Origin: Escherichia coli
GTDB lineage: Bacteria; Pseudomonadota; Gammaproteobacteria; Enterobacterales; Enterobacteriaceae
Length of the DNA stretch: 64,000 nt
Assembly: GCF_003018255.1 (NCBI RefSeq)
Contig: NZ_CP027440.1
Direction: 5' to 3' (one strand)
The position numbers and the translations under genes are program-made. The notes under the pieces are model-generated. The model was not told the DNA's origin, did no database searches, and saw nothing but the letters and a program-made list of their open reading frames with translations. Below, one piece after another: positions 19,891 through 20,766 of the stretch (position 1 is its first letter; each line of letters starts with the position of its first letter).

Positions 19891-19903
19891 TTGTTATTGC
19901 ATA

Positions 19904-19940
19904 AAACCGCGCCATGTATGCATATGGCGCGGTTTCTCTT
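19904..19940 (+). terminator. Rho-independent terminator of betT
   Basis: AAACCGCGCCAT-GTATGC-ATGGCGCGGTTT followed by CTCTT, 14 bp after the betT stop. Confidence 0.65.
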
Positions 19941-20766
19941 ACCTCTTGATACGTTATATCTGTACAGTTAAGCCCTTAGTATAGATTGATGATTGCCAGG
20001 CAACAGATAATAAAAAAGAAAAGAACTATTGAAGCCCAAAACCTACGTTTGGACTGTTGTGAATGTTCAATAAGCTTAGTCTTAATTAATGTAAATATTG
20101 GTGCTAATTTGAAATGACGCTTTATTCATGGGGAACGCGTAGCGCAAATCAACAAAAATCAATGTAACCATTTGTTGTTTAAGGTTTAATTGTCTGTGCC
20201 TGATATTTTATTGATTGTTTTAAATATTGTTTTTATTGTCATTGTTATAATGTTGGTCATCTATTGCTGAATGGATTCAGTCTTAAGAGGCAGGTTGTTA
20301 AGGGATAGGCATAGAGTAATGACGTGTATGCATAACCAACATCTTTACTCATTATGTCATTGAATGTTGACGCTATGTGTTTATGAGGTTGAGGTATTTT
20401 CAGTTGATCTGGATTGTTAAATTCATATAATGCGCCTTTACTCATGAATGGGCGTCAATACGTAGTGGGAAATTATAAATATCGAAATAGTCCAACTACT
20501 TCTTTATTACCAAAAATGAGTATCTGAATTTTAATATTGCATTCTTGCGTGATTATCTCCTGAGTTTTGACTTGTGATTACCTTTTTAAGGTATTTAGCG
20601 TAACTGTTTCTGAGCGAGCATCAGAGGTAAAGATAATCTTCTTGATAGTGATGTGGGATGTTATACGTATGGCATCGCTAATGTTTATGGTTACCCCTTA
20701 TGTGTGCTCAGGAATCCACAGGTAATCACTCATACTGAACAGCGATAAAAGATAAAAGGTGTGTTC

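Follow-up and report, generated by a model that had tools for sequence, protein, structure and literature searches.

The AT-rich betT-pdeL spacer of an Escherichia coli genome as the likely transcriptional control region of pdeL

Introduction

The pdeL (yahA) promoter region of Escherichia coli K-12 is the closest described system to the locus considered here and has reportedly been studied by Reinders et al. (2015/2021), Shimada et al. (2005/2011/2014), Rangarajan & Schnetz (2018), and Yilmaz et al. (2020). Expression of pdeL in K-12 is published to be low, due to H-NS. The gene is derepressed in an hns mutant, and its co-activators are Cra and PdeL itself (Reinders et al., bioRxiv 10.1101/2021.10.01.462762). 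Specifically, the Kd of Cra for its box is 49 nM, and PdeL binds an adjoining Cra-dependent box (CDB) only when Cra is present. PdeL alone binds weakly to a Cra-independent box (CIB), where it competes with H-NS (bioRxiv 10.1101/2021.10.01.462762). Together, Cra and PdeL raise the binding of RNA polymerase, and low c-di-GMP favors PdeL tetramers that engage both boxes, which leads to cooperative, hysteretic, and bimodal expression (bioRxiv 10.1101/2021.10.01.462762). The H-NS-bound DNA takes in the beginning of pdeL, which contains a PhoB site (PMC10294691).

The bgl, proU, and csgD promoters are silenced by H-NS and antisilenced by activators, in keeping with the xenogeneic-silencing paradigm, and resemble that of pdeL in several ways: the DNA upstream and at the start of the coding sequence is AT-rich over a long stretch, hns mutants show derepression, and a specific DNA-binding protein competes with H-NS. 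IS1 insertions in the pdeL spacer of some genomes add to this likeness. Unlike in these systems, PdeL itself acts as the anti-silencer at its gene, and c-di-GMP, the substrate of the enzyme, sets its oligomeric state, which results in bistability.

The spacer between betT and pdeL described here belongs to a 64-kb stretch of E. coli DNA, the whole of which is referred to as the window. It is the same locus as the K-12 pdeL promoter region. Its Cra box and its -35 and -10 hexamers are identical to those of K-12, its CIB palindrome lies in the same place, and its AT content is the same.

Extent, Composition, and Identity of the Spacer

The spacer spans 19891-20766 and is bounded by the end of the betT open reading frame (ORF) at 19890 and the pdeL ATG at 20767, which is also the annotated start in K-12. 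The upstream flank, betT (17857-19890, plus strand), is a 677-aa ORF for a choline transporter; RefSeq uses the name betT for it both in K-12 and in a genome that is 99.9% identical. Downstream, the pdeL ORF (20767-21855, plus strand) is annotated by RefSeq and encodes a c-di-GMP phosphodiesterase and transcription regulator with a LuxR-type HTH and an EAL domain; its product is 99.2% identical in amino acid sequence to K-12 PdeL.

An AT-rich gap of about 875 bp had been described at this place in a first-pass annotation and is borne out, with a length of exactly 876 bp and a GC content of 0.348 compared with 0.510 for the 64-kb window. Among all 876-bp segments of the window, just 1.2% are equally AT-rich, and no ORF of at least 100 aa occurs within 19891-20766. 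Two further long, ORF-poor, AT-rich stretches lie at 12848-13952 (1,105 bp, GC 0.336) and 37344-38226 (883 bp, GC 0.404), and these may be additional H-NS-type regions.

The interval 19700-20900 is matched in 5,223 of 5,426 complete E. coli genomes. The flanks are annotated as betT and pdeL, and identity to genomes with these annotated flanks ranges from 94.6 to 99.9%. The whole spacer aligns collinearly with K-12 (NC_000913.3), with three one-base indels. The stretch is very probably the E. coli betT-pdeL intergenic region and, as such, the transcriptional control region of pdeL. Its layout would comprise the betT hairpin, about 500 bp of AT-rich regulatory DNA (CIB, yahV, Cra box, and CDB), a sigma-70 promoter, and a leader of about 327 nt. 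The term "leader region", which had been applied to the entire stretch, suits its last third (~20438-20766, downstream of the promoter) and does not fit the rest. The accompanying view that only a terminator is recognizable did not hold, as the K-12 Cra box, both PdeL boxes, and the sigma-70 promoter all map onto the window.

The spacer was compared among seven E. coli alleles and two other Escherichia lineages, L006 and L007. Full-length PdeL orthologs with the HTH domain were not found outside Escherichia, and deeper phylogenetic footprinting is impossible because HTH-bearing PdeL is found only in this genus. In L006 and L007 (1-3000), a pdeL-type spacer directly follows lutB/lutC (ykgF/ykgG), and the bet operon is absent at that place.

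The 5′ end of the spacer contains a terminator-like hairpin of betT with a weak U-rich tail (19904-19940, plus strand; stem 19904-19917/19922-19935). This hairpin had been recognized earlier and is real. It has a G+C-rich stem of 12-14 bp directly 3′ of the stop codon, which holds a perfect 12-nt inverted repeat, and the 70-nt segment that contains it folds at -22.9 kcal/mol (z = -4.0, with 0 of 200 shuffles as stable). The tail, UUUCUCUU, is an interrupted and poor U-tract. A terminator scan returned 0 sites and missed the hairpin because its T-run is interrupted.

PdeL Boxes, Cra Box, and Promoter

The EMSA oligonucleotides in the supplement of Reinders et al. (bioRxiv 10.1101/2021.10.01.462762) match K-12 exactly and were then mapped to the window; from the CB/CDB oligonucleotide, a surplus T was first removed. 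The ortholog of the CIB fragment lies at 20056-20122. Within it, the palindrome at 20069-20086 reads AATAAGcttagtCTTAAT in the window, while the K-12 consensus is AATAAG-N6-CTTATT and all other sampled alleles share the CTTATT right arm with K-12. A pattern search for this palindrome gave one match against 0.16 expected, and the box is kept in L006 and L007 amid diverged flanks. The T>A change at 20085 (CTTAAT rather than CTTATT) is private to the window and absent from the other sampled alleles and from L006 and L007. In K-12, the left arm of the CIB overlaps an H-NS site (Reinders et al., bioRxiv 10.1101/2021.10.01.462762).

The Cra (FruR) box, GCTGAATGGATTCAGT, lies at 20266-20281 and is identical to the K-12 CB oligonucleotide. 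It is the sole match in the window to GCTGAANCGNTTCAGC at up to two mismatches, with 0.31 expected, which is non-significant at the scale of the window. The box is invariant in all alleles, in L006 and L007, and in the spacer of the ehaA haplotype described below. Adjoining it is the putative CDB (20282-20294). The CB-CDB oligonucleotide maps to 20265-20294 with five substitutions that all fall in the CDB part (5 of 13 positions; CTTAAGAGGCAGG in the window and CTTAATGAGTGGG in K-12). The position of the CDB is kept, but nowhere in the spacer does the sequence vary more than here. Together, the CIB and CDB changes of the window could render PdeL autoregulation weaker or otherwise altered.

A promoter scan places the sigma-70 promoter of pdeL at 20404-20431 (plus strand), with a -35 TTGATC at 20404-20409, a 16-nt spacer, and a -10 TATAAT at 20426-20431. 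It matches 10 of 12 consensus positions, and no second strong sigma-70-like site occurs on the sense strand; the spacer as a whole yields two promoter-like sites versus 4.7 in shuffles. RpoD genomic SELEX reported the same TTGATC-16-TATAAT in the betT>yahA spacer, with an H-NS flag (Shimada et al., PMC3946193). The RNA polymerase recruitment fragment used in EMSA ends at window position 20443. Judging from the -10 hexamer, pdeL transcription probably starts at ~20438-20440, about 165 bp downstream of the Cra box, which is far for direct contact of Cra with RNA polymerase.

A 10-nt direct repeat, CTTTACTCAT, occurs at 20343-20352 and 20436-20445, 93 bp apart. Its second copy overlaps the putative transcription start, where K-12 has CTTTGCTCAT. 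Inside pdeL, at 20889-20906, the window contains an exact copy of the PhoB binding site TGTAACAGAAATATCACA, which K-12 ChIP-seq places inside yahA in H-NS-bound DNA (PMC10294691).

Conserved Islands and Allele Variation

Conservation of the spacer is confined to islands: the CIB palindrome, the Shine-Dalgarno (SD)-like TTTAAGGTTTAATT block, the Cra box, and a promoter block of 100 bp. Between these islands, L006 and L007 diverge by 40-50% while GC stays steady at 0.34-0.36. This pattern fits specific sites set within DNA that would be constrained by composition only. Conservation of the promoter block (20341-20440) is 97-100% among E. coli alleles and drops to 78-83% in L006 and L007.

The central segment from the CIB through yahV to the CDB (20096-20340) is 12-17% diverged between the window and K-12 (83-88% identical). 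By comparison, the promoter block and leader differ by 2-4% (96-98% identical) and the four-fold degenerate sites of pdeL by 5.9%, so that the central segment diverges 2-3 times as much as these sites. It forms two major allele classes plus mosaics. The allele of the window is a rare one of a B2/UTI89-like class: a match of ≥99% to its central 251 bp occurs in 6 of 5,426 genomes. The rapid evolution of this segment may reflect strain-specific tuning of the pdeL switch; recombination, relaxed constraint, or selection may account for it.

IS1 copies are located in or beside the spacer in three sampled loci, at ~636-1333 in L057, 3668-4365 in L005, and 2288-2985 in L055. One copy occupies the interval between the betT hairpin and the CIB, another follows yahV closely, with loss of pdeL-yahE, and a third truncates pdeL.

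The yahV Open Reading Frame

The K-12 annotation includes yahV (b4730), an ORF of 24 codons located 306 nt after betT. Its ortholog in the window (20196-20270, plus strand), identified by orthology and translation, has a GTG start and encodes the 24-aa hydrophobic small protein MPDILLIVLNIVFIVIVIMLVIYC. An SD-like AAGG lies at 20181-20184, 11 nt upstream of the GTG. The first-pass annotation had seen no convincing ORF in the spacer, a statement that this intact 24-codon ortholog overturns. The ORF is flanked by the two PdeL boxes and ends in a TGA that is part of the Cra box. RefSeq leaves it unannotated in the allele class of the window.

YahV-SPA, made from the K-12 allele, has been seen by immunoblot in MG1655 (VanOrsdel et al. 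2018, PMC6001520). With YahV, one of the small membrane proteins of E. coli detected by SPA-tagging (VanOrsdel et al. 2018), the window ORF shares a length of 24 codons, a single predicted hydrophobic helix, and the GTG start. It differs from K-12 YahV at 7 of 24 residues. Co-occurrence analysis links YahV to osmotic and motility functions, and a role in osmotic stress or motility has been proposed (PMC9976479). These observations raise the alternative that yahV is the key functional element of the locus, a membrane small protein with its own role, and that the spacer is in fact an interval with two genes. In its favor, the 24-codon ORF, the GTG, and the SD-like AAGG are kept in all seven sampled E. 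coli alleles, even though they lie in the fastest-evolving segment.

This intactness is weak evidence, however, because three control ORFs (19986-20117, 20567-20725, and 20653-20748) are likewise intact in 7 of 7 alleles. Among the seven alleles, 9 of 24 YahV residues vary, almost every substitution is non-synonymous, and there is no sign of purifying selection on the protein sequence. Between the window and K-12, eight of nine nucleotide changes fall in codons with a changed amino acid. In L006 and L007 the reading frame is disrupted while the flanking Cra box and SD-like block are kept, and none of 10 small spacer ORFs on both strands is conserved beyond E. coli in these two lineages. In addition, the promoter scan gave no promoter-like site upstream of yahV, T-rich DNA yields hydrophobic codons by composition, and the Reinders preprint (bioRxiv 10.1101/2021.10.01.462762) does not mention yahV anywhere. 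The sequence data thus appear to give a function of the YahV protein no support beyond the K-12 immunoblot, and a central role for yahV is unlikely. The ORF is best seen as a young one that is restricted to E. coli and nested in the regulatory DNA of pdeL.

The pdeL Leader

The untranslated leader of pdeL would span 20438-20766 (plus strand), as judged from the promoter position, with a length of ~327-329 nt and the SD sequence AAGGTG at 20756-20761. Its 3′ half contains a candidate long imperfect RNA hairpin of ~110 nt (20606-20715, plus strand), identified by folding against shuffles, which reaches -38 kcal/mol (z -3.8, with 0 of 200 shuffles as stable). The orthologous segments give z -6.2 in L006 and z -2.1 in L007, and the antisense strand reaches -23.7 kcal/mol at best. 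Across the compared sequences, 96.7% of cells are paired, and 10 one-sided substitutions keep the pairing. This hairpin could be a regulatory layer not described for K-12.

A stable, sense-biased hairpin that is retained in L006 and L007 and whose pairing survives these substitutions would speak for the view that the spacer encodes an RNA-level regulator, such as a small RNA, a leader riboswitch or thermosensor, or a leader-peptide attenuator. The higher expression of pdeL at 37 °C (PMC12890032) can also be read in this way. Several results argue against such a regulator. The alifold covariation term for the leader is unfavorable at +1.98 (6 sequences), and no hairpin pair is changed on both sides, in a sample of six sequences that is shallow and not decisive. 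The leader as a whole has no excess stability against shuffles (z -1.16), and the upstream part scores z 0.08. Covariance models of Rfam 15, run over 19500-21200 on both strands with permissive filters, gave 0 matches at E ≤ 1. Promoter and terminator scans of the spacer found neither terminators nor orphan promoters, and the K-12 annotation contains no ncRNA there. Thermoregulation, for its part, can be accounted for by H-NS alone. An RNA-level regulator is accordingly quite improbable.

The same results speak against the unannotated small RNA that had been suggested for this region: no Rfam match at E ≤ 1, no promoter/terminator pair, and rounded fold z-scores of -1.2 and 0.1. The suggested leader peptide fares no better. 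Of the upstream ORFs in the leader, none persists outside E. coli; they are shortened in K-12 or disrupted in L006 and L007, and the one at 20444 is cut to 13 codons in K-12. A leader-peptide attenuator was rejected on these non-conserved ORFs and on the lack of a terminator. yahV is not a leader peptide either, because it sits upstream of the pdeL promoter. A repeat search of the spacer returned short, chance-level repeats only, and a 10-nt inverted repeat (20574-20583/20720-20729) was discarded, being absent from L006 and L007.

The ehaA Haplotype and the Origin of the Spacer

A second haplotype of the locus, in which betT is followed by 572 bp (GC 0.31), ehaA, 141 bp, and pdeL, is present in 1,402 of 5,426 complete E. 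coli genomes (26%). Its pdeL is 93.6% identical. The two haplotypes part at 19932/19933, within the 3′ end of the betT hairpin; the ehaA type matches up to 19932, and its hairpin tail is missing altogether. E. whittamii and E. albertii contain ehaA or ehaA remnants upstream of pdeL. Within the literature searched, no paper linked ehaA to pdeL/yahA regulation.

The region upstream of ehaA in this O-island-type haplotype (e.g., in O157 genomes) resembles the spacer of the window in several respects. The two begin at the same position relative to the betT hairpin, and the ehaA region is likewise AT-rich (GC 0.31) and contains an identical 17-nt Cra box. The -35/CATATAATGCGC core occurs in both spacers at near-equal spacing (135 vs 138 bp). 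The ehaA spacer also has a PdeL-box-like palindrome, AATAAGacgattCTTATA, a feature that arises in 39 of 5,000 shuffles. This palindrome is located 22 nt downstream of the Cra box, whereas the CIB of the window lies ~200 bp upstream. The ehaA region further differs in the gene downstream of it, which is ehaA and not pdeL and which it may drive; it also lacks yahV and any counterpart of 19933-20150 or 20620-20755.

Global alignment of the ehaA spacer (L056, NZ_CP062868.1, reverse complement, 445-1016) with window positions 20150-20620 scores 157 versus 106 +/- 8.5 for shuffles. By sequence comparison, the pdeL promoter of the window is homologous to the region upstream of ehaA in the other haplotype, because the two share the Cra box, the promoter core, and an alignment score above that of shuffles. 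This homology suggests that ehaA may be under Cra/PdeL/H-NS control.

It is conceivable that the spacer is mainly a remnant, in which ehaA (an autotransporter gene of 4 kb) was lost from an ancestral betT-ehaA-pdeL arrangement and its promoter region was fused to pdeL. Length and AT-richness would then be historical and not required. The frequency of the ehaA haplotype, the occurrence of ehaA or its remnants in E. whittamii and E. albertii, and the shared Cra box, promoter core, and alignment score are all consistent with such an event. By contrast, window positions 20600-20755 contain no ehaA coding remnant, with scores at the level of shuffles, nor does the ehaA spacer contain an equivalent of the CIB part (19933-20150), again with scores at shuffle level. 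Two cryptic-clade genomes have a pdeL-type spacer without ehaA or the bet operon, and the event may have been either a deletion or an insertion or replacement. Conserved islands and K-12 genetics also show that the spacer DNA is functional now. The remnant reading is a serious possibility that falls somewhat short of an even chance; it explains origin and is compatible with the present function of the spacer in pdeL control.

A more far-reaching proposal is that the Cra/PdeL/H-NS switch is the ancestral ehaA-pdeL promoter, that PdeL and Cra control EhaA, possibly bistably, in the 26% of genomes that keep ehaA (including O157-type strains), and that the layout of the window and K-12 arose by loss of ehaA. 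This proposal is tentative, and the balance of probability leans against it.

One sampled contig from a metagenome-assembled genome labeled Collinsella sp. (L015) encodes an EhaA 99.5% identical to the E. coli protein and the start of pdeL. This contig almost certainly comes from Escherichia and was misbinned.

Discussion

The AT-rich gap between betT and pdeL is real but ordinary, and the regulation of pdeL has already been published in detail. With the known elements placed on the sequence of the window, the gap requires no new explanation. The binding and expression steps of the mechanism were shown for K-12 only; by orthology, it probably operates in the window as well. The first-pass annotation had anticipated both silencing by H-NS and a promoter with multiple inputs for this region; both are shown by published experiments on the K-12 ortholog, and the same motifs are present here.

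Under the K-12 mechanism, H-NS would polymerize on the AT-rich spacer DNA and keep the promoter off. Cra on its box would let PdeL occupy the CDB, and at low c-di-GMP, PdeL tetramers would also reach the CIB ~200 bp upstream. PdeL at the CIB would then displace H-NS and aid the recruitment of RNA polymerase. In this way, a c-di-GMP phosphodiesterase would be subject to positive autoregulation that is both cooperative and bistable. AT-richness itself would be the silencing substrate, with sequence constraint limited to short islands.

If PdeL and Cra do control EhaA, adhesin expression in pathogenic lineages would be tied directly, and in a testable way, to c-di-GMP sensing and carbon flux. The pdeL system serves as a model of a digital second-messenger network, in which a phosphodiesterase doubles as its own transcription activator. 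Because natural alleles vary precisely at the PdeL boxes, the threshold or the bistability of this switch may differ among strains of E. coli.
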